From positions 1,440,001 to 1,504,000 of the forward strand of contig CAVQMM010000001.1 of the NCBI GenBank assembly GCA_963713615.1: a stretch of DNA of 64,000 nucleotides, read 5' to 3'. How positions within the stretch are numbered: the stretch's first letter is position 1; every line of letters starts with the position of its first letter. The position numbers and the translations under genes were made by a program. This DNA is from an uncultured Chlamydiae bacterium (lineage in GTDB: Bacteria; Chlamydiota; Chlamydiia; Chlamydiales; JAJFMA01). Positions 14,158-52,233 of this stretch are shown piece after piece. Below the pieces are notes generated by a model. The model worked only from the letters and a program-made list of their open reading frames with translations, was not told the origin of the DNA and ran no database searches.

Positions 14158-14528
14158 GAAGAAGTTAGAACAGATGGTCCATACTCGCCCTGCGGGTATG
14201 GACCGGGCTGGAAGGACTTCAGACGAGAAGGATCTGGGCCCGGGTGATTCTGGCCTGTTTTTAGGTGCCAACCGACTGTCGTCGGGCGGTGATGGGAGGT
14301 GCCAACCGCGTGTCGCGGGTCGGTGATGGAGGAGGTGCCAGGAGGTTGTCGTCAGTCGGTGATGGAAGGTGCCAACTCGCTGACGCCGGGCGGTGATGGA
14401 AGGTGCCAACTGCGTGTCGCCGAGGTGCCATCATCGCTGTCGCCGTACAGGTTCTAAAGATGAGCCAAGAAAGTGCGGAAATTCTAGAGAGAAAATTCAT
14501 TGTTTTTAGGACGATTCGTTTCAGCCCA

Positions 14529-22721: not shown

Positions 22722-23776
22722 TTATAATTTATCACTTTGCAGCCCCCGAACTATCCTCTGACTTTTCAAAATTTCCTCTTTGGACTTTCGAAAATCTTCC
22801 TGCAGGATCTGAAGGGGATGGTTTAGCGTAATTGGCATGAGTTGCCCCTGTTCTAAAATCACCATTCGATCATTGGGGATCTTTTCCTCATTTTGCTTTG
22901 CTTGAGCAGTATAGCCATTGCTGCTAAGAAATTGGTTGTACTCCCAAGCAAGCTTTTGCTGAGGAGTCATACTTTTTCGATTTTCCTTGGGAAGCTCAGG
23001 GAGGCTAGGCTGTTGACAAACCCACATCATCAGCCCGATGGGGCTGTCGACATTGTGCTTTCTTCTTACAAATTCCGCAGCATGAGCCACACGATGTTCG
23101 CTATAGCACATCAGGGATCTCTTTTCCTGATCGCTCAAATCCAATCCATCCAGGCATTTGTAAAAAGTGCGCGAATAGGCTGCTGCAGCTCTTTTTCTTC
23201 TTCTTTTTCTTCTTCCTTTGTTAGTGGTTCTGGATTGGTTCTCGATTGGTTTCTATCCGGTTCTTTTGTGGTTTTTTGGTGGTTGTTAACTGGTTCTTTG
23301 GTTGGTTCTTTTTCTCGATTTTTCATTGACAAATCTGATGGTTCTTTTGATGGTTCCCATGTGGTTTCTTTTTGGTTCTCTAGTGGTTGCTGAATGGTTT
23401 TCGCGTGGCTGTAATTTGGTTCTTTTTCTAAGGCTGTGCACGCCTTTATAGGCCCTTCATCCGATTCAGCATTGATGTCAAAAATGGCTTTGTTAGTGAG
23501 AACTGCAATAGTCCCTTGATTGGTTTTTCGGAAAGTCGCAAGGCCGTGTGCTTCAAGTCTCAGTACCGCATCACGGTATTGCTGCCTGGACAAACCAATC
23601 TTTTTATGATCGCCAACGAGTGCTTCGTTAGCCTTGAGTTGATAGATTGAATAAGCGGGATCCATCCGGTTTGCACGCAAAGCAATCTGCGTCAACAACG
23701 CGAAAGCTGGAAGGCTGAGTTCTAAAAGCGCAAGTCCCTCTCGATAAAGTTTTACGAATCCTTCGGAAGTTATCAT
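22722..23776 (-). pseudogene. Phage/ICE replication-initiator-like gene, split into two overlapping ORFs
   Basis: N-terminal FVKLYR plus HTH-like region and a KEP/TK-rich linker typical of O-like initiators; ORFs 23135-23776 and 22722-23144 overlap. Confidence 0.5.
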
Positions 23777-24065
23777 GGCTGTACTGCGATTTTAGCGTTT
23801 TCCTGGACTTCGGGCTCCTTTTTCCGGGGTCTGTATTTTTTCTCAGATACCCACTTGAAAAAAGCCTTCTCATCAATGAGCCAGGTTCGATTAGGTCGCT
23901 TTAAGACCTTAGCAAACCCATTTTCATTTCGAAAAAAGATCAAGTGGCGCATTCCACCGACTGGAGGCCACTCATGAAACTCATTCCATTTCGAACAGGG
24001 ATGAACCGTGTCTGTTTTGGCTCTGTAGCCACTTCGTCTATATTTTTTGATCTATCGTTTTTCAT
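23773..24065 (-). pseudogene. Excisionase-like small DNA-binding protein with one frameshift (not in the ORF track)
   Basis: Hand translation gives MKNDRS...RFIPV then, after a frameshift, KWNEFHEWPPVGGMRHLIF...NGF...LIDEKAFFKW; AGAGGAG RBS; stop overlaps the next ATG. Confidence 0.55.
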
Positions 24066-24180
24066 TTCGCACTCCTCTGCTATTGCAGTTTGAATTTAAT
24101 AACCGCATTTTACGGCGACCTATCGTCATGAAAAAATGGCGCCGGTGGAAAAACCGTAAAATGCGTTGAATAGCAGTGAG

Positions 24181-24726
24181 TTATAAATGATTGAAATAGG
24201 AAGAGAAATCGAAAGAAAGCTTCTGATAGCTGTCTTTTTTAGGACGGCCATTTCTATCCCGCCTGCTTTGCGAAGGCTCTTCATTTATGGGAATAGCTGA
24301 ATCGATGACCCAGCCGTAAACGGTCTTGAAAGGATATTTCCGCACCTTCGAGCAATGCTTGTAGATGATCTGTGCCATTTGACGGTTGGACAGTTGAGAA
24401 AAATCCCTTCGCAGTTTTCTTGCTGCGCTCCAAGCAAAGAGCTTATCTTCCCTTTCTTGAGCGGGTCGCCTTTTGGCGAAGACCGCCTTCCCTTGCAAAA
24501 GAAGCCAAGCTTCCGTAAGCAAAGGAGCGACATACAAGCCTTCTCGTTTCACTTCTTTGTCTTCGATAGCGTCGTCTTTTAGCCGCCCCTTATGGACCAG
24601 CTTCAGCCAATCGACAGGCAAGGCAGCCCGAACATTCTTGCCATATTCTGAGCAGAAGGAATGGACCGCAATTCTTCCCTCTTCAAAACAGCTTTTGAAA
24701 AGCTCGTAGTACTTTTCAAAATCAGA
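24181..24726 (-). pseudogene. Hypothetical protein, 5'-truncated at REP-B
   Basis: The ORF's apparent N terminus is translated REP sequence. Confidence 0.55.
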
Positions 24727-24829
24727 GCTGGGGGTCAAGCTGGGGGTCAGGCCTGACACTATGACACTTGAGGCTGGGGTCAGGCCTGACACTAGAGGCT
24801 GGGGTCAGGCCTGATACTATGACACTTGT
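24727..24829 (+). repeat. REP-B stuttered array
   Basis: Four units starting GCTGGGG(G)TCA with variable 3' length; palindrome GTCAGGCCTGAC. Confidence 0.9.
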
Positions 24830-24919
24830 GTATATAAAATAAGGGGCTGGCGTAGCACAAATAAATTTATGGAAACGGCGCTTGATCTAACCTTCGATGT
24901 TATGGAAATGCCAAGCCCA

Positions 24920-25624
24920 CTAGCTATTGGCCATGGCCAAAATGAACTCAGCCTTAAGGCCATCCACCTCGCTTCGTAATGCACTAGATTCTTGCATTCT
25001 GCTTTCTAACCGTGCTGCGGCCTTGCTCATACCACTGGCTTCTCGATTACAGAAATCTGCTAACTCCTGCAGACTAACGCCCTGTGCATCTCTCATGATT
25101 AAAGCCATAACTGATCGGATATGTGAGATTTTGCGGTCCATATTAGGTAATCGTAGCATTTCTTCATGAATGTTATAGTGCTCCGTGATGAAAGAAAGAA
25201 TGCTTGGAAAGTCGATGGTCAGAGGATAGCCCATTGAATGGTCCATCCGTTCTCGCTCTTTTTCAATGAAATCATCATCGCCCAAAATCCCGTCACTAAA
25301 GCCATTTTTAAAATCGATATCCGGATCTCGGTTCATACCTGCGTTAACGTACTCGTGAAATGCGATTACAGCCTCACTGCGTAACTTGCCAAAATGCTGC
25401 AGACAATCGTCTATTGAGAGCCATGCATATTCTTCCTTCATCAGATATGCCTGATGACTGCTCCATCGATAATTCGAAGGATCATCCACCATCCTTGCAC
25501 GCACCGGATTCAAGTGGATGTATCGGACGAGTTCTTTGAGATAGCGGCGACTATCCACGAGTACCGATTTAAATCTCCCCTGAAATAAGTGTCCAATGGT
25601 TTTGCGACGCTGATTAAAAAATAA
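24920..25624 (-). pseudogene. 5'-truncated tandem copy of the RAYT gene
   Basis: 24795-25624 matches 25656-26485 (offset 861); the break abuts REP-B at 25625. Confidence 0.9.
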
Positions 25625-25690
25625 GCTGGGGGTCAGGCCTGACACTATGACACTTGAGGCTGGGGTCAGGCCTGATACTATGACACTTGT
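25625..25690 (+). repeat. REP-B array
   Basis: Two GCTGGGG(G)TCAGGCCTGA[CT]ACTATGACACTTG units. Confidence 0.9.
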
Positions 25691-25780
25691 GTATATAAAA
25701 TAAGGGGCTGGCGTAGCACAAATAAATTTATGGAAACGGCGCTTGATCTAACCTTCGATGTTATGGAAATGCCAAGCCCA

Positions 25781-26737
25781 CTAGCTATTGGCCATGGCCA
25801 AAATGAACTCAGCCTTAAGGCCATCCACCTCGCTTCGTAATGCACTAGATTCTTGCATTCTGCTTTCTAACCGTGCTGCGGCCTTGCTCATACCACTGGC
25901 TTCTCGATTACAGAAATCTGCTAACTCCTGCAGACTAACGCCCTGTGCATCTCTCATGATTAAAGCCATAACTGATCGGATATGTGAGATTTTGCGGTCC
26001 ATATTAGGTAATCGTAGCATTTCTTCATGAATGTTATAGTGCTCCGTGATGAAAGAAAGAATGCTTGGAAAGTCGATGGTCAGAGGATAGCCCATTGAAT
26101 GGTCCATCCGTTCTCGCTCTTTTTCAATGAAATCATCATCGCCCAAAATCCCGTCACTAAAGCCATTTTTAAAATCGATATCCGGATCTCGGTTCATACC
26201 TGCGTTAACGTACTCGTGAAATGCGATTACAGCCTCACTGCGTAACTTGCCAAAATGCTGCAGACAATCGTCTATTGAGAGCCATGCATATTCTTCCTTC
26301 ATCAGATATGCCTGATGACTGCTCCATCGATAATTCGAAGGATCATCCACCATCCTTGCACGCACCGGATTCAAGTGGATGTATCGGACGAGTTCTTTGA
26401 GATAGCGGCGACTATCCACGAGTACCGATTTAAATCTCCCCTGAAATAAGTGTCCAATGGTTTTGCGACGCTGATTAAAAAATAATGCGTACCTAAAAGA
26501 TAGATTTTGACAGATCTTCGATAACGAAATTTCGTTCAGCTGGATCGCCAAATGTATATGATTGGTCATGAAGCAGAATGCCAGAATGCGATGCCTATAT
26601 CGTTCAATACCCTCTTGCATTAGTAGACAGAATCGACAGCGTTCTGCGTCTGATGAGAAAATGGCCTGACCATTATTCCCTCTCAGCATCACATGATACG
26701 TAGCGCCGGGAGAAAAGTGTCGTTGTCGTCTCGCCAT
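25781..26737 (-). CDS. REP-associated tyrosine transposase (RAYT/TnpA-REP, Y1 HUH) with C-terminal HTH-like extension
   Basis: YHVMLRGN, MTNHIHL (HUH), GHLFQGRFKS, YIHLNPVRA, YRWSSH; flanked by inverted REPs. Confidence 0.93.
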   Translation of the reverse strand: MARRQRHFSPGATYHVMLRGNNGQAIFSSDAERCRFCLLMQEGIERYRHRILAFCFMTNHIHLAIQLNEISLSKICQNLSFRYALFFNQRRKTIGHLFQGRFKSVLVDSRRYLKELVRYIHLNPVRARMVDDPSNYRWSSHQAYLMKEEYAWLSIDDCLQHFGKLRSEAVIAFHEYVNAGMNRDPDIDFKNGFSDGILGDDDFIEKERERMDHSMGYPLTIDFPSILSFITEHYNIHEEMLRLPNMDRKISHIRSVMALIMRDAQGVSLQELADFCNREASGMSKAAARLESRMQESSALRSEVDGLKAEFILAMANS

Positions 26738-26802
26738 AAGCACTCCCACTTTGATGTTCGTAAAATATTTATTTGGATTTGAGAGCTTACAACGAATCAA
26801 AA

Positions 26803-26864
26803 GGTACGTCAAGTGTCATAGTGTCAGGCCTGACCCCACCATAGTGTCAGGCCTGACCCCACCA
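26803..26864 (-). repeat. REP-B array in inverted orientation
   Basis: CAAGTGTCATAGTGTCAGGCCTGACCCCACC plus a shorter copy with the same outer end. Confidence 0.9.
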
Positions 26865-27030
26865 TCCCTCTTCCATTTTTAGCGAGAGTCTTCGATCTAA
26901 ATGACCTATCAAAGCACTGACCGCCCTTCATCCGAATGCGCACTCGATAAGTTTGGCAATGCCTATGAGTCCTCACGATAATTCCTCTGAGATCATTTTC
27001 CGTTTTTTCCAAGCTTTCTTTCTGCTCCAT
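26865..27030 (-). pseudogene. Tyrosine integrase N-terminal remnant
   Basis: YRVRIRMKG....RSF.SKT.AK arm-binding-type N terminus, cut at REP-B. Confidence 0.55.
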
Positions 27031-41001: not shown

Positions 41002-41774
41002 GTTCATCAAATCGGAAACCTGTGATCGCAGGTAATTGGAAAATGCACAAGACAATTGAGGAAGCAGTGAGTTTTGTGCAGGAACTGATCCCATTAATCC
41101 AGAATACTCAAGCTAAAATCTATATCGCTGTTCCCTATACAGCACTTCGTTTTGCTGCTGATGCAGCCAAGGACTGCCCTATTGTCATAGGAGCAGAAAA
41201 CATGAGTGATGAAACGGAAGGCGCTTTCACCGGAGAAATTTCAGCAAATATGTTGAAAAATGCAGGAGCACAGTTTGTTATCTTAGGCCATTCTGAGAGG
41301 CGTCACATTTTTAATGAGACTAATGCTTTCATCCACAGCAAAGTCAAAAGAGCTATTTCTGAAAATATACAAATTATCTTTTGCCTCGGTGAAACAGAAC
41401 AAGAGCGCAAAGCTAAAAAAACAGAAGAAGTACTCACTCAGCAATTGGAGGAATCCCTAGGCGATATTGCGGCAGAACAGATGGCCGCGATTATTCTAGC
41501 TTATGAACCTGTATGGGCCATTGGGTCGGGTCATTCTGCTCTTCCTGAAGAAGTTCAAGCGATGCACCATTTTTGTCGTCAATGGGTGAAGCAAAAGTGG
41601 GGAGAAGAAACCGCTCAGAAAGTGATTATTCAGTATGGAGGCTCGGTGCATCCTAATGATGCAAAGGATTTTATGGAACTACCTGATGTGGATGGTGTTC
41701 TGGTAGGGGGCGCTTCCCTCACAGTCGAATCATTTAATAAAATTATTCATTATTCAAGTGTAGGCATTAGATGA
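40998..41774 (+). CDS. tpiA: Triosephosphate isomerase
   Basis: AGNWKM, GAFTGE, GHSERR, AYEPVWAIG, YGGSV, LVGGASL motifs. Confidence 0.93.
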   Translation: MSSSNRKPVIAGNWKMHKTIEEAVSFVQELIPLIQNTQAKIYIAVPYTALRFAADAAKDCPIVIGAENMSDETEGAFTGEISANMLKNAGAQFVILGHSERRHIFNETNAFIHSKVKRAISENIQIIFCLGETEQERKAKKTEEVLTQQLEESLGDIAAEQMAAIILAYEPVWAIGSGHSALPEEVQAMHHFCRQWVKQKWGEETAQKVIIQYGGSVHPNDAKDFMELPDVDGVLVGGASLTVESFNKIIHYSSVGIR

Positions 41775-43002
41775 AATCCAATGCTGATCAGCTCAAGACT
41801 TCCAAATTGAACCCGGAATCAAAACCCAATGCAAAGGATGATCTAAAAACTATTTCCATGCCGGAATTGGAGAAAAAATTGGGCTCGTCGTCGGAAGGAC
41901 TTACTCAAGCCGAGGCGCAGAAACGATTGATTCAATATGGACCTAACGAGATTGAAGAAAAGAAAACCAATCCTTTTCTTAAATTCCTTAGCTACTTTTG
42001 GGGTCCCATCCCTTGGATGATTGAAATAGCGGTGATTCTGTCAGGCGTGGTCCGGCACTGGCCGGATTTTTTCATCATTCTGCTTTTACTTTTTACCAAT
42101 GCTATCGTCGGATTCTGGGAAGAACGGCAGGCTGGAAATGCCATTGCTGCTCTGAAAGCCAAGCTGGCGATTAAGGCTCGAGTGAAACGCGATGGAAAGT
42201 GGGTTAATCCAGCGGCGCGTGAATTGGTGCCGGGAGATGTCATTCGGTTGCGCATGGGCGATATTGTGCCGGCGGATGCGCGTTTGTTAGAGGGCGATCC
42301 GGTGGAGGTGGATCAGTCTGCGCTGACAGGAGAATCGTTGCCAGTCACCCATAAATCCGGCGAAGCTGTGTTTTCCGGATCGATTATACGCCAGGGAGAA
42401 ATCGGAGCATTAGTATATGGCACTGGTGCGAATACCTATTTCGGCAAGACAGCACAATTAGTACAGGGAGCGCATACCGTCAGTCATTTTCAAAAAGCGG
42501 TTTTGAAGATTGGCGATTATCTGATTATTCTCGCAGTGGTTTTGGTTGCTCTGATTATTACTGTGGCGATCTTCCGTGGAGATCCGATCCTCACGACATT
42601 GCAGTTCGCCTTAGTATTGACTGTAGCGGCGATTCCTGTGGCAATGCCGACAGTCCTATCGGTTACGATGGCAGTCGGTGCGCGCCTACTAGCCAGAAAA
42701 GAAGCAATTGTTAGCAGGTTAGTGGCCATCGAGGAATTAGCAGGAGTCGATGTTCTGTGCGCGGATAAAACCGGTACGCTGACTCAGAACAAGCTGACAC
42801 TTGGCGATCCCTTCAGCGTGGATAATGTTAGCGCGGAACAAGTCATCCTCAATGCCGCGCTGGCGTCCCGCGCAGATAATAACGATATTATTGATCTGGC
42901 CGTTCTGGGCGGTTTGAAAAATAAAGATGCAATGAAAGGCTATCAGGTAATTCATTTCCAGCCATTCGACCCAGTGCATAAACGTACCGAGGCCACAGTC
43001 AA
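41771..43002 (+). pseudogene. Plasma-membrane-type H+ P-type ATPase, truncated at REP-A
   Basis: FWGPIPWMIE, LTGES, IPVAMP, DKTGTLT, PFDPV.KRTEA; ends abruptly at GGCTAGGGGTCAG. Confidence 0.9.
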
Positions 43003-43130
43003 GGCTAGGGGTCAGGGCTAGGGCTAGGGGTCAGACGTGACTTGTTGACTTGTTCACTTGTTCATCGTACGAGAAACCTTAGTTGAGCAATCCAGCGGAA
43101 TTTCTGACGAACAATCACGTCTGCCCCTAC
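43003..43130 (+). repeat. REP-A doublet with stuttered left end
   Basis: GGCTAGGGGTCAG-GGCTAG-GGCTAGGGGTCAGACGTGAC...CACGTCTGCCCCTA. Confidence 0.88.
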
Positions 43131-43489
43131 TAACATCACACCTTGGAGAGCTCTAGCACTACATCCATCTTGATCTCCAAGTCACCAAAAAATTCACTAA
43201 ACACATCTCAGAACAGATTCTTCAAGAAGTAATCCAGATGACCTCAAGCAATGTGGGGGGCAATTGCCGCGAAACTGTAACGATAAGTAATGGCTTTGAA
43301 TTGTCGCTTCACCGATGCGATAATTTAACGCTAGATTACAGATTGTCATATCGTGATACGACAATCCAGCAAGCACCCTGTAGGCACAATAAGTAGGATT
43401 GATTTAGTAGCCCAAACTGGGATATTTAGGACTGAGGGAAGTGATGAATGAGAAAAAGGTAAAAGAACTTAGATGGATGGCCGCTCTGG

Positions 43490-43520
43490 GGCTAGGGTCA
43501 GATATGACTTATTGACTTTT
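43490..43520 (+). repeat. REP-A half element
   Basis: GGCTAGGGTCAGATATGACTTATTGACTT. Confidence 0.75.
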
Positions 43521-44030: not shown

Positions 44031-45414
44031 GGTTCTTGGGAAGAATTGGGGGCGCAGAGCGCAAAGATCAGCTAATACATTAATTTTTTAGGCAAAAAAA
44101 GAGAGGACATAGAAAATCCTATGTTTCGACACAATAGGAGGTTCTCTATGTCCATCTCAAAGGTCTTTTATGCCTTGATCGAAGATAAAAGTGTAGTTTT
44201 TCAAAGCGCAGAATTTCAGTCGGACTATACCATCTTTCACGGTCATCTGCGGCAAAGTGGCAAAAAATGCCCATGTTGTAAGGCTTCCAACGTGCGAATC
44301 AAGGAGACAAAGGAAAGAACTTTTCGAATGCTCAACCTTGGCCAAAAACGGACCTACCTTAAAATGGATTCCCACAAGATCTGGTGCCAGCAATGTAACG
44401 CGATTGCCTGGCTTCAACACCCTTTTACCTCTGGAAAGCTACCGATGACCAAGTCTTTCATCAATTACATCCTTCAGTTAACTGCAATGACAACCCTTCT
44501 TTGCGTAGCACTATTCCTAGGACTGCAATGGAAGACCGTAAAGAACCTAGACAAAGCCAATCTTAGAAAACGTGCAAAGCAATTTTCATTCCGAAAGCTT
44601 CGTTACATTAGCATCGACGAGATAGCAATAAGGAAGGGTCATAAATACATGACAATTTTCACAGACATCGCGACAGGCCAAATTATCCATGCTGTCGCAG
44701 GGAGGGACGAAGAATCACTTAGACCTTTTCTAAAGCTTCTTTCAAAGAAGGCCAAGCGACTTAGGGGCATTGGTATCGACATGAGTGCAGCCTATTCGAG
44801 TTCGATTCAAAAACACCTTCCTCTGGTGCCGATCATTTATGATCGCTTTCATGTTACCAAACTTCTCAATGATACGATCGACAAAATCAGGCGCGCTGAG
44901 TACGCCAAGCACATGAACACGGGTGTAGCGGTAATGAAAGGTCAGCGGTTTCTACTTCTGCGAAATTTTGTGGATCTTGATGATGGACAGAAAAGTAGCC
45001 TTGAAAGACTCCTAGAAGTTAATCACTCATTAGCAGTAGCTCACAGTATGAAAGAACAATTCAGGTTATTTTGGGAGCTTGAATCAAGACAGGAAGGAGC
45101 TAAATTTCTTGGATGGTGGATCATTCAGGCAATTGAGTCTGGGATTGAGCAGTTAGCGAGAACTGCTCGTACACTACTCCATCATTACATGGGGCTCTTA
45201 AGCTACTTCGAACACCGGATAGACAATGGAAAGGCGGAAGGAATCAATAACAAGATAAAGGTTTTGAAGAGACAGGCATATGGCTTTCGAGACCAAGAAT
45301 ACTTTAAGCTAAGGCTATACAACCTCCACAGGAAGGACTATGAATTGGTTGGTTAGACTGGAAGATACTGGGAAAGTGTCTCTGGAGGGCCGCCCCCAAT
45401 TCTTCCCAAGAACC
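44031..45414 (+). mobile_element. ISL3-family element
   Basis: TIRs GGTTCTTGGGAAGAATTGGGGGCG and CGCCCCCAATTCTTCCCAAGAACC. Confidence 0.92.
44148..45356 (+). CDS. ISL3 transposase
   Basis: CPCC zinc finger, IDE...RKGH.Y, IDM, DRFHV, EGINNKIK..KR.AYGFR motifs. Confidence 0.95.
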   Translation: MSISKVFYALIEDKSVVFQSAEFQSDYTIFHGHLRQSGKKCPCCKASNVRIKETKERTFRMLNLGQKRTYLKMDSHKIWCQQCNAIAWLQHPFTSGKLPMTKSFINYILQLTAMTTLLCVALFLGLQWKTVKNLDKANLRKRAKQFSFRKLRYISIDEIAIRKGHKYMTIFTDIATGQIIHAVAGRDEESLRPFLKLLSKKAKRLRGIGIDMSAAYSSSIQKHLPLVPIIYDRFHVTKLLNDTIDKIRRAEYAKHMNTGVAVMKGQRFLLLRNFVDLDDGQKSSLERLLEVNHSLAVAHSMKEQFRLFWELESRQEGAKFLGWWIIQAIESGIEQLARTARTLLHHYMGLLSYFEHRIDNGKAEGINNKIKVLKRQAYGFRDQEYFKLRLYNLHRKDYELVG

Positions 45415-49188: not shown

Positions 49189-49220
49189 GGCTAGGGTCAG
49201 ACGTGGGCTGAAACGAATCG
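49189..49220 (+). repeat. REP-A left end plus orphan MITE TIR
   Basis: GGCTAGGGTCAGACG followed by TGGGCTGAAACGAATCG. Confidence 0.85.
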
Positions 49221-49222
49221 CC

Positions 49223-49562
49223 CTACACTTTTTGATTTAATTCCAATAACCTTGGCTGAAAAGTCATGTTATAAATGTTGATTTGCTCAGGAAACCTATG
49301 TTGTTGGATCCATTCTTTAAAAAATTTATCGGCAACCTGTTTATAGAATTCAGAGATCTGGTAGTCTTTATGGCCTTTGCAGAGATCCGGATTTCCCAGG
49401 CAGAAGGAACCTCCACCCTTAATTTCTTTCCATGTCTTCTTTCCTTTGCCCTTAGACTCTTGTTCCTCCATTACCAGTCGAATACCGCAATCCTGTTTGG
49501 TTTCTTCTTCTTGCAATCCTTTCTCTAAACCAATCTCTTGATAGTGGACACAATATTTACGT
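49223..49562 (-). pseudogene. Diverged copy of the C-terminal repeat domain of 49870-51540
   Basis: Shares HKDYQISEFYKQVADKFFKEWIQQH...NMTFQP.LLEL.QKV; 5' end cut at REP-B. Confidence 0.8.
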
Positions 49563-49668
49563 GGGCTGGGGGTCAGGCTCTATGACACTTGGGCTGGGGG
49601 TCATGGGGGTCAGGCCTGACACTATGACACTTGGGCTGGGGGTCAGGCCTGACACTATGACACTTGTG
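49563..49668 (+). repeat. REP-B stuttered array
   Basis: Four GGGGGTCA-initiated units of variable length. Confidence 0.88.
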
Positions 49669-49869: not shown

Positions 49870-51540
49870 CTACACTTTTTGATCTAATTCCAATAGCTTT
49901 GGCTGAAAAGTCATGTTATAGATGCGCATTTGTACAGGAAACTTATGTTGTTGGATCCATTCTTTGAAAAATTTATCCGCAACTTGTTTATAGAATTCAG
50001 AGATCTGGTAGTCCTTATGGCTTTTGCAGATATCCGGATTTCCCAGCCTGAAGGAACCTGCTCCACCCTTAATCTCCTTCCATGTCCTCCGCTTGCCCTT
50101 AACCTCTTGCTCCTCCATTACCAGCTGAATGCCGCGATCCTGTTTGGAGCTTCTCTCTTCTTCTAAACCAATGTCTTTGTAGTGGATACGATATTTACGT
50201 GTACCGTCATCGTCATTATATGCTTTAAGATTTTCATCATAGTAACGCGTACCCGGTAGTTGAGGCGTATCCCGTGCGTTTTCTGGTACAGGCGTGTTTT
50301 GATCTAGGCGGATAGGATTGAAATCTAAACCGAATGCTTTAATTTCTTGGGGAAATGATTGATGTTCAATTTGTTCCTTTAAAAACCGATCGGTTACTTG
50401 GATGTAAAATTCTGTTGCCTGTCCCTTGTTGTTATAGCGTCCGGAAGGATGAGGATCTCCAAGGTAGAAGCAACCTGAGCCTTCAATTTTTTTCCACATT
50501 TCTCCATTGCAAGAACGTTCTTTAATATCTAAACGTTCTTCCATCTCTATTCGAATACCACGCTCATTTTGATGATATTCGCTTTCTTTTCCTTCTTGTG
50601 TTGTTCGAAACTTTCCTTTCATGAAAAGTTCTGTGTAGCGGACACGGTACTTACGCTTTCCATCATCACCATTAAAGCCTTCGAGATTTTCATCATAGAA
50701 ACGATAGTCTGACACCGGGGGCTTTCCACCCTCTTGTTCAATCAGTTCGTGGGATGAAAACTGTCGTAATGGTTGCGGAGAGCCTTTTGGTGGGGTTGCG
50801 GGTGTTGCAGATTGTCGCTTAAAAATAGAAGAATGTTTCATCAGGTTTAAAGAAACCACCAATTTGTCGATTACTTTTTTACCGTCGGCGATGAGGTGAC
50901 TGACTTCTTTTACCTTTGGTTTGCCTAAGTGCATCAAGACTACTTTGTTATGTTTTGTGAAGTAGCATCCTCCTGAGCTTCCTGGAGAGGTATCGCTAAA
51001 CACCATTTGAAATGACGGGTTGGAACTGTTCTCTTTTCCAGCTTTGCTTAAGGAAAATACGGGTTGCCCATCTCTTTGATGAACCAACATGAGTTCTTCA
51101 TCTGGGCGAGCATCTCGAAGTGGCGGAATCGTGACCCAATGGTCAGCGTGATGGCCATCTTGAGGCTTGAGTTGAGCAATGCAATAATCCGTACTTTTTT
51201 CGTAATTCATGAATTCCGCTATTTCAAAACTAAGAGGGGCGTTGCCATCCACGTGAAAGACTACCGACAAATCTCGGGGATGCAAATGCTTCTTCGCAAG
51301 ATGTAAAGGGATGAGCAAACGATCAGGACCGAGCAAAATACCCGATCCTAAAGGTGCGCCGCCGGAAGTGTTAATCTGAGCTCGACAGCGATTGGCATAT
51401 TCAATTGTTTCTTTCCAATGTGGCCATTGGTGAAGAGCCTCATGGTAATCCAGCATCGATGATTTTTCGGAGATTGAAGACTCTTGAGAGACCGTCCAGC
51501 CAGTCAAAGAAGTGGGTGGAAGAGTATTGAGGATTACCAT
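49870..51540 (-). CDS. Trypsin-like serine protease domain with a tandemly repeated C-terminal domain
   Basis: GSGILL...H, DYCI, DTSPGSSGG; YDENL..N.DDG.RKYR repeated twice. Confidence 0.65.
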   Translation of the reverse strand: MVILNTLPPTSLTGWTVSQESSISEKSSMLDYHEALHQWPHWKETIEYANRCRAQINTSGGAPLGSGILLGPDRLLIPLHLAKKHLHPRDLSVVFHVDGNAPLSFEIAEFMNYEKSTDYCIAQLKPQDGHHADHWVTIPPLRDARPDEELMLVHQRDGQPVFSLSKAGKENSSNPSFQMVFSDTSPGSSGGCYFTKHNKVVLMHLGKPKVKEVSHLIADGKKVIDKLVVSLNLMKHSSIFKRQSATPATPPKGSPQPLRQFSSHELIEQEGGKPPVSDYRFYDENLEGFNGDDGKRKYRVRYTELFMKGKFRTTQEGKESEYHQNERGIRIEMEERLDIKERSCNGEMWKKIEGSGCFYLGDPHPSGRYNNKGQATEFYIQVTDRFLKEQIEHQSFPQEIKAFGLDFNPIRLDQNTPVPENARDTPQLPGTRYYDENLKAYNDDDGTRKYRIHYKDIGLEEERSSKQDRGIQLVMEEQEVKGKRRTWKEIKGGAGSFRLGNPDICKSHKDYQISEFYKQVADKFFKEWIQQHKFPVQMRIYNMTFQPKLLELDQKV

Positions 51541-51719: not shown

Positions 51720-52185
51720 GGCTGGGGGTCGGCTGGGGGTCAGGCCTGATACTAGGGGCTGGGGGTCAGGCTGGGGGTCAGGCCTGATACTATGACACTT
51801 GTGTATATAAAATAAGGGGCTGGCGTAGCACAAATAAATTTATGGAAACGGCGCTTGATCTAACCTTCGATGTTATGGAAATGCCAAGCCCACTAGCTAT
51901 TGGCCATGGCCAAAATGAACTCAGCCTTAAGGCCATGCACCTCGCTTCGTAATGCACTAGATTCTTGCATTCTGCTTTCTAACCGTGCTGCGGCCTTGCT
52001 CATACCACTGGCTTCTCGGTACGTCAAGTGTCATAGTGTCAGGCCTGACCCCACCCTCGTCACGTCACGTCAAGTGTCATAGTGTCAGGCCTGACCCCAC
52101 CATAGTGTCAGGCCTGACCCCACCATGACCCCACCATAAGTGTCATAGTGTCAGGCCTGACCCCACCACAGGCCTGACCCCACCA
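51720..52185 (-). mobile_element. Internally deleted RAYT derivative between stuttered inverted REP-B arrays
   Basis: RAYT downstream flank and last codons joined at 52018 to GTACGTCAAGTG (matches the right REP at 26804 onward); one substitution seen versus the parent. Confidence 0.88.
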
Positions 52186-52233
52186 TTGAAATTTCTTGGA
52201 CTCCCTATCGTCCTCAAGGTGGCTTTCCTGAGT

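Follow-up and report, generated by a model that had tools for sequence, protein, structure and literature searches.

TIRYT transposases and the TIRtrons to which they belong were named in 2013 by Di Nocera et al. (PMC3733652). They are the same as subclass 2.1.2 of the TnpA-Y1 proteins, set up by Quentin et al. in 2018 (PMC6006769), and as RAYT group 1 of Bertels et al., described in 2017 (PMC5581495). Subclass 2.1 is reported as the second largest Y1 transposase-like group, with a presence in 14.9% of species (PMC6006769), and RAYT group 1 as the one with the highest duplication rate among RAYT groups and with some plasmid copies (PMC5581495). Where these studies define it, TIRYT is kept apart from the REP-associated RAYTs and is the most IS-like RAYT group (PMC3733652, PMC6006769, PMC5581495). 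The element analysed here resembles the published TIRtrons in its Y1/HUH core with the YIHLNP motif, its Bac_DnaA_C-like tail, its inverted repeats of the form GGGG[AT][CG]A[CG] and its lack of REPs, and also in forming small families of dimeric (MITE-like) repeats (PMC3733652, PMC6006769, PMC5581495). It goes beyond that literature in showing a boundary 5 nt outside the repeat (position -5), partial ends stacked on each other, empty alleles and rearrangements that affect one side. Among the main texts searched, none described TIRYT end stutter, a cut site, a mechanism or an activity.

The REPtrons (TnpAREP, RAYT groups 2 and 3; PMC3333891, PMC8266576) are close in fold (4ER8), and the model of nicking, priming and rejoining described for their BIMEs fits the arrays reported below. 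Unlike a REPtron, the element has neither a GTAG foot nor a stable hairpin, occurs in tens and not hundreds of copies, and carries an extra HTH. REPtron cuts are described at CT dinucleotides at variable distance, whereas the cut predicted here appears to be set by distance. The IS200/IS605 elements (IS608, ISDra2) share the Y1 fold, the phosphotyrosine chemistry and the absence of target duplication, but they have a Y-x3-Q motif and subterminal hairpins with guides in place of the Y-x3-NP motif, the HTH tail and the symmetric inverted repeats found here. The transposases of IS91 are of the Y2 type. IS91 and IS1294 are comparable in their HUH enzyme, the lack of target duplication, the combination of one fixed and one variable end and the carrying of flanks, and are described as having distinct oriIS and terIS and a tetranucleotide target and as lacking terminal inverted repeats (PMC13181058). 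In contrast, our element has two similar ends that both show stutter, and a fixed target was not observed; all that the flanks have in common is, in family A, a preference for purines at -6/-7. With symmetric, both-stuttered ends and no tetranucleotide target, the element was not assigned to the IS91-like rolling-circle elements.

The element in the window is a TIRtron

The window is the whole stretch of 64,000 nucleotides of chlamydial DNA that was analysed. The host is apparently an environmental chlamydia, as the window also encodes an ATP/ADP translocase and most of the nearest named relatives are chlamydial MAGs. The complete element is framed by 28-bp terminal inverted repeats (TIRs) that begin with GGGGTCAG (25629-25656 and 26810-26837), and the locus has the following features:

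24181..24725, minus strand: left flank, the 3' portion of an ORF that has lost its 5' portion here but not in related populations; without hits in Pfam or NCBIfam
24726..24795, plus strand: outer short units of the left-end array, with heads at 24726, 24738 and 24771 and bodies of 7, 28 and 20 nt
24796..25623, plus strand: long stutter unit, made of the left end and the gene's 3' portion (residues 84-318, without the HUH motif), equal to 25657-26484 over 828 nt
25624..25689, plus strand: left end of the complete element, a head and 28-nt TIR followed by a second head and 28-nt TIR
25781..26737, minus strand: intact TIRYT gene, 318 aa from the ATG at 26737, with a Y1_Tnp core and a Bac_DnaA_C-like HTH tail
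26810..26865, minus strand: right end of the complete element, with the 28-nt TIR (26810-26837), head ATGGT, an 18-nt partial copy and head ATGGT (26861-26865)
26866..27030, minus strand: right flank, the 5' fragment of another ORF, cut by the element

The catalytic motifs of the protein are H60-I-H62 (NHIH) and Y119 in YIHLNP, and residues H60, H62, Y119, N123 and P124 do not vary across 15 aligned relatives. A Pfam search found Y1_Tnp (E 5e-13) and Bac_DnaA_C (E 2e-5, under the gathering score), and a profile search hits six DnaA chains (top E 2e-8). The predicted structure (pLDDT 88) has TnpAREP (4ER8) as its top fold match, followed by the TnpA of IS608/ISDra2 and then by DnaA domain IV; the tail domain of the model matches the DnaA-type structures 1J1V and 3PVP in Foldseek with an rmsd of 1.7-1.8. 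The features that define subclass 2.1.2 were found in the window: a Y1_Tnp core with HuH and Y-x3-NP (Y[IV]HLNP), a C-terminal Bac_DnaA_C/HTH domain, and terminal inverted repeats starting with GGGG[AT][CG]A[CG]. Judged from motifs and domains, with the definitions given in PMC3733652 and PMC6006769, the element is a TIRYT/TIRtron (TnpA-Y1 subclass 2.1.2), i.e., a Y1/HUH gene between terminal inverted repeats. It is thus an ordinary member of a named family and not a new kind of element.

The original prediction had taken the gene for a RAYT and its repeats for REPs, and motifs, folding and domains identify them instead as a TIRYT and its terminal inverted repeats. A conserved 5' GT[AG]G foot was sought at the ends and in the relatives and was absent; GTGG occurs only at the right end of family B, the family of the complete element, where it arises from the head and the G-run. 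Three single ends fold weakly, no better than shuffled sequences (-2.2 to -2.6 kcal/mol, z 0.55-0.82). The genome holds 17 copies of the B repeat and 38 of a second repeat, A (at most 2 mismatches), hence tens and not hundreds, and the NCBIfam RAYT model NF047646 gives the protein 70.8 bits, below its cut-off of 80. The REP/REPtron reading was rejected on these grounds. The accompanying contrast with single-copy, immobile RAYTs is also weaker than it had been put, because TIRYT, the most IS-like RAYT group, was already set apart from the REP-associated ones.

Two small ORFs lie further left on the minus strand (23135-24080), the one at 23135-23776 having no Pfam or NCBIfam hit; in appearance they recall a replication protein and an HTH protein of the excisionase type. 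The ORF fragment of the right flank (26866-27030) presumably resembles the N-terminus of a phage integrase. The two small ORFs suggest that the TIRtron landed inside an integrated mobile element, which is also present in related populations.

Stuttered ends mostly share an outer boundary 5 nt outside GGGG

Arrays of partial ends are present, within a base of where they had been predicted, at 24726, 25624, 26805-26865, 49564, 51720 and 52020-52186, and also at 43003, where the repeats are of family A ('REP-A'). Three features lie away from the complete element:

43003..43045, plus strand: stuttered A-family end, joined into a P-type ATPase gene, which is cut off there
49564..49666, plus strand: solo left-end array with four anchors and head GGCTG, joined to a truncated 3'-end copy of the ORF at 49870-51540
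51720..52186, unstranded: internally deleted, non-autonomous copy of the element, with four anchors in its left array, some 245 nt of interior from the left side and six anchors in its right array

The ORF at 49870-51540 encodes 556 aa with an internal repeat and has no Pfam or NCBIfam hit; we take its N-terminus to be trypsin-like. The truncated copy of its 3' end (49220-49563, just downstream) is 84% identical.

Genome-wide there are 13 arrays, and when they are split 5 nt outside GGGG, each unit resolves into a locus-specific 5-nt head and a body of 4-41 nt. The head varies by locus (AGCTG, GGCTG, ATGGT, TGCTA), and left-end heads bear no relation to right-end heads, nor those of one element to those of another, relatives included. 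Units of an array have a common outer end and differ in their inner stops, which lie 4-41 nt inside and in one case 823 nt: the long unit at 24796-25623 keeps the same -5 register and has a body of 823 nt that is 100% identical to the full copy. Inner (3') ends repeat at +6/+7, +11, +18/19 and +27/28, so that they are variable and not uniform. The window also holds exceptions to -5, namely a 2-nt head at 49597, a boundary at -4 at 52164 and 1-2 extra G at a few junctions. The fixed outer end and variable inner stop that had been predicted therefore stand as a pattern, but the fixed point is 5 nt outside GGGG; the end at GCT/GGT first proposed was rejected in favour of this position. Similarly, the six repeats with shrinking heads reported for 52020-52185 are real as six copies of GACCCCACC (within 52047-52176), but there is no ordered shrinking, the six right-end units of 52020-52186 having bodies of 12, 27, 6, 18 and 41 nt and then the full end.

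Perfect tandem duplications of 10-60 nt are strongly concentrated at these ends: 12 of the 124 in contig C1 overlap element ends, when 0.17 are expected (about 70-fold). Tabulation of the unit boundaries bore out the expected difference between the two sides, inner ones ranging from 4 to 823 nt, and the copies at 10 of the 13 outer junctions having 5 or 6 nt to the left of GGGG in common. Randomly placed duplications of the same lengths give 2.4 (P ~2e-6), and the three remaining junctions share 2, 4 and 7 nt. The 5-6 window was picked from these same 13 junctions, so the independent tests of -5 given below weigh more. Among 18 hand-listed stutter junctions, 8 begin at -5 without homology to the head, and 9 have a 2-3-nt match (at least 2 nt) to the local head when 1.0 is expected, although two of the set are likely one inherited event and several reuse an internal TGAC, so that the true count is nearer 7. 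Overall, microhomology of 1-3 nt is found at about half of the junctions.

These figures bear on the improbable reading in which the arrays come from replication slippage, independent of the enzyme, at an end that is palindromic and rich in G, and in which the outer boundary is no more than the edge of the element. The B repeat does contain a perfect 12-bp palindrome, a stack of two B units forms a strong fold-back (-12 to -16 kcal/mol; z -2.5 and -5.1), microhomology is enriched at the junctions, and for the unit at 24771 slippage from one unit to its neighbour is the best reading. Yet the palindrome of family A is imperfect and its ends stutter too, the 823-nt unit and the insertion junctions use the same -5 position, and neither the eight homology-free junctions at -5 nor the excess of 10 over the 2.4 produced by random duplication is what slippage predicts. 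Pure slippage fails on the register, yet it probably reshapes the B arrays.

Sister copies, paralogs and uninterrupted alleles place the boundary at -5

Sister copies of the element ends at unrelated sites of C1 have exactly 5 outer bases in common (374785/1748900 at both ends, 2412594/3084393 and 2420542/2368961), as do the right ends at 26865 and 52186 in the window; older, diverged sister pairs have 0-4. A paralog of the outer flank exists in the genome for 17 of 62 ends. Two of these are copies with the same end, and four, with diverged paralogs, break at -7 to -9. Near-identical uninterrupted paralogs give seven distinct junctions, which first depart at -5, -4 or -3 (C1: 1465629, 1483008, 1971241, 3351092, 3084393, 2368961 and 1581995), and the matches inward of -5 are bases in common with the head.

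Outside populations were represented by contigs only, from four runs (X1-X4) of four studies; X1 may have a connection with the source sample. Pieces of the element interior, free of differences, are present in contigs of all four runs. The contigs of X2 and X4 match the left flank as far as 24725, beyond which uninterrupted sequence follows (break between 24725 and 24726), and those of X1 and X3 contain the right flank from 26864/26865 outward, with other sequence in place of the element. Because the uninterrupted alleles differ from the head and there is no target duplication, the head is not native to its present site and travels with the end. We accordingly rejected two other origins of the 5-nt head, as a target-site duplication (none above 3 nt in 19 end pairs) and as native target DNA of the present site (the alleles differ from it). 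Each continuation also differs from the flank on the opposite side. The element thus lies between sequences that were not adjacent before, and a deletion or rearrangement must have affected one side or both. The same one-sided truncation is seen in the ATPase at 41771-43002 and in the fragment at 49220-49563. When the 19 end pairs were joined in silico and tested against the genome, where most flanks have no paralog, spanning hits were obtained for one (2 hits, 75-77% identity, 21 gaps) and no clean two-ended insertion was seen; the orthologous locus is absent from four same-genus/family genomes. Three concordant lines for the -5 boundary, a long unit in register and the empty alleles are what this genome adds, and on the evidence of these junctions the boundary likely marks the site at which the enzyme cuts and rejoins.

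The same contigs speak to the very remote chance that the arrays are an assembly or consensus artefact of repeats. Such an origin would be in keeping with the 828-nt duplicate being 100% identical to the full copy, with none of the X1-X4 contigs spanning 24738-25623, and with evidence made of contigs and not of raw reads. It is hard to reconcile with array junctions that recur elsewhere (one of the 49564 array in a contig of X3, part of the 52020 right array in one of X1), with the same stutter in 18 loci of other assemblies, with a head and unit set particular to each array, and with one register common to 12 arrays over 2 Mb. Independent support for the arrays is therefore at hand, but it does not extend to the long duplicate.

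End stutter in relatives

We surveyed 131 related loci, of which 113 have a near-full gene. Paired repeats were found in 30 of the 75 with flank on both sides, and stutter at 23 of 126 ends (18 loci). Their 43 junctions share a head of 5 nt in 18 cases, 6 in 4, 7 in 8, 0 in 6 and another length in 7. Outer junctions fall at 5-6 in 8 of 23, when 3.5 are expected (P 0.011, under an approximate null and with kin that are not independent), and the offset is 4 nt in locus L171 and at least 7 nt in several other relatives. Only 3 of 25 held-out loci have adjacent anchors; 9 of their 10 junctions lie at 4-7, and none of the four outer ones, a small set, at the preset 5-6. End stutter is thus real and family-wide, and the register, as read from the junction sequences, is 5 in the source genome and 4-7 across the family.

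Pairs of relatives also differ in their surroundings. L010 and L011 have the same element plus 2.9 kb on one side, with one extra unit there and a different flank on the other; the elements of L059 and L090 are 99.4% identical and their flanks differ. Together with the uninterrupted alleles and swapped flanks, these pairs uphold the view that the element behaves as mobile, rearranges DNA and is not domesticated. Among viral contigs, 8 candidate TIRYT relatives were found and 0 confirmed. Runs X2 and X3 contain a mini-element of about 90 nt from another organism, with B-like ends, a short AT-rich interior and then a partial copy of the end. In a stutter unit at L133:2370-2431, the start of the unit recurs as a fold-back copy, a hint that the template was switched while the unit formed.

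How the arrays might be built

Cleavage by HUH enzymes produces a 5'-phosphotyrosine and a 3'-OH, the latter being able either to serve as a primer for synthesis or to attack the link, and any oligonucleotide with a 3'-OH resolves the phosphotyrosine link of TnpAREP, as described in PMC8266576; nick-primed extension followed by rejoining has been proposed for BIME amplification (PMC3333891, Fig. 7B). From the junctions, it seems probable to us that the TIRtron transposase nicks the GGGG strand 5 nt outside either repeat and joins the tyrosine-bound 5' end to any available 3'-OH. The DnaA-like HTH would probably bind the repeat (GTCA-N4-TGAC-N4-TGAC) as a duplex and, once bound, would set the HUH site at a fixed distance and not at a fixed sequence. 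The freed 3'-OH would then prime strand-displacement synthesis by the host over a few to several hundred bases, and the displaced, enzyme-linked head would be rejoined to the new 3' end, helped where its first bases pair with the template, leaving a tandem copy of the tip. Joining to a more distant 3'-OH would produce one-ended insertions, adjacent deletions and carried flanks; either end of the TIRtron could serve as the start, and ordinary slippage between stacked units would later reshape older arrays.

We infer all enzyme steps of this nick-extend-rejoin scheme from the junctions. Nicking at -5, extension and head rejoining would yield tandem copies with a fixed outer and a variable inner end, and would account for the microhomology to the local head. 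The earlier proposal that a fixed 5' end is repeatedly joined to variable 3' ends agrees in this respect with all junctions collected, but the ends are not REPs, some secondary slippage is needed, and the part of the enzyme is deduced. Counting against the -5 scheme are deviating junctions in the source genome at -2, -4 and -7, with extra bases at some, and joining head first does not explain solo ends that are followed by foreign DNA (49666, 43520).

The same enzyme with the same -5 cut could also act without nick-primed synthesis, through an IS608-like exchange between sisters, with two single strands cleaved at the replication fork, in which an acceptor site inside would give a duplication and one outside a deletion. 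This alternative is the nearest to the wording of the original prediction, and we think it unlikely. One reaction would cover both the inward duplications and the one-sided loss of flanks, and the acceptor may be chosen under guidance by DNA, as described for IS608 and group 3 TnpAREP (PMC8266576), with the microhomology to the head as a possible trace of it. Such an exchange fits nearly as well as nick-primed synthesis, and junction sequence alone cannot separate the two. It is less at ease with the half of the junctions that have no homology to the head, with very short units (head plus 1-7 nt), for which the acceptor would have to be cut inside the enzyme footprint, and with single ends that fold weakly, unlike IS608 or REP hairpins.

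The junctions give a precise and cheap prediction, a nick 5 nt outside GGGGTCAG on the GGGG strand of either end, and they show the element truncating genes and swapping flanks. A broader and more tentative reading, to which we give somewhat less than even credence, is that TIRtrons are active HUH transposons with two equivalent origins, a cut that is measured by distance from an inverted repeat bound as duplex and is independent of sequence, and an end that can be ligated to nearly every nascent 3'-OH. Each end would then work as a one-ended, rolling-circle-like rearrangement engine stacking past nicks in the chromosome. If the predicted nick is confirmed, it would add a mode of transposition that combines inverted repeats with HUH chemistry, and a distance-guided single-strand ligase could serve as a tool.

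Family A and other copies in the genome

A second TIRYT, 42-43% identical to that of the window, is encoded at C1:1580934-1581890 and goes with the A ends, which make about 15 MITE-like pairs across the chromosome. At the A-family end in the window, the uninterrupted ATPase paralog departs at -3, equivalent to -5 with 2 nt of microhomology. Bases -4 to -1 are conserved in family A and -6/-7 are purine-rich; the conserved bases outside the end make some sequence reading by the enzyme possible. All clear B-family ends lie within 28 kb (window 24726-52186), and 27 of the 68 end-like matches of both families are in a single 250-kb bin (C1 1.25-1.5 Mb), so the activity looks local, inside an island-like region.

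Several copies have flanking DNA attached. A 124-nt piece, made of 97 nt of flank and 27 nt of A end, is 100% identical between window 43397-43520 and C1:1580793-1580916, leading into the A transposase at one site and into an unrelated gene fragment at the other. A long palindromic repeat with more than 100 copies in the genome alternates with three copies of MITE-A at C1:1970830-1972100; two of the repeats there are cut at the same base, and the third is whole. Tandem units of MITE plus flank occupy C1:1970830-1971732, and a 64-nt flank was carried to C1:3351092; by analogy, these resemble the one-ended transposition described for IS91 (PMC13181058). A 426-nt flank common to C1:2368836 and C1:2420441 was not counted as transduction, because it sits in a multi-copy gene family.

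Ends of a third kind (GGGGTCAG..GGGCTGAAACGAA) are found at window 11031, 18106 and 49190 and at L004:882. No transposase gene of its own was found here, and these ends may bound larger cargo-carrying units. The window also contains an ISL3-family transposase (44121-45356) and, at about 14300-14450, the end of another IS that has 13 more near-identical copies in the genome.
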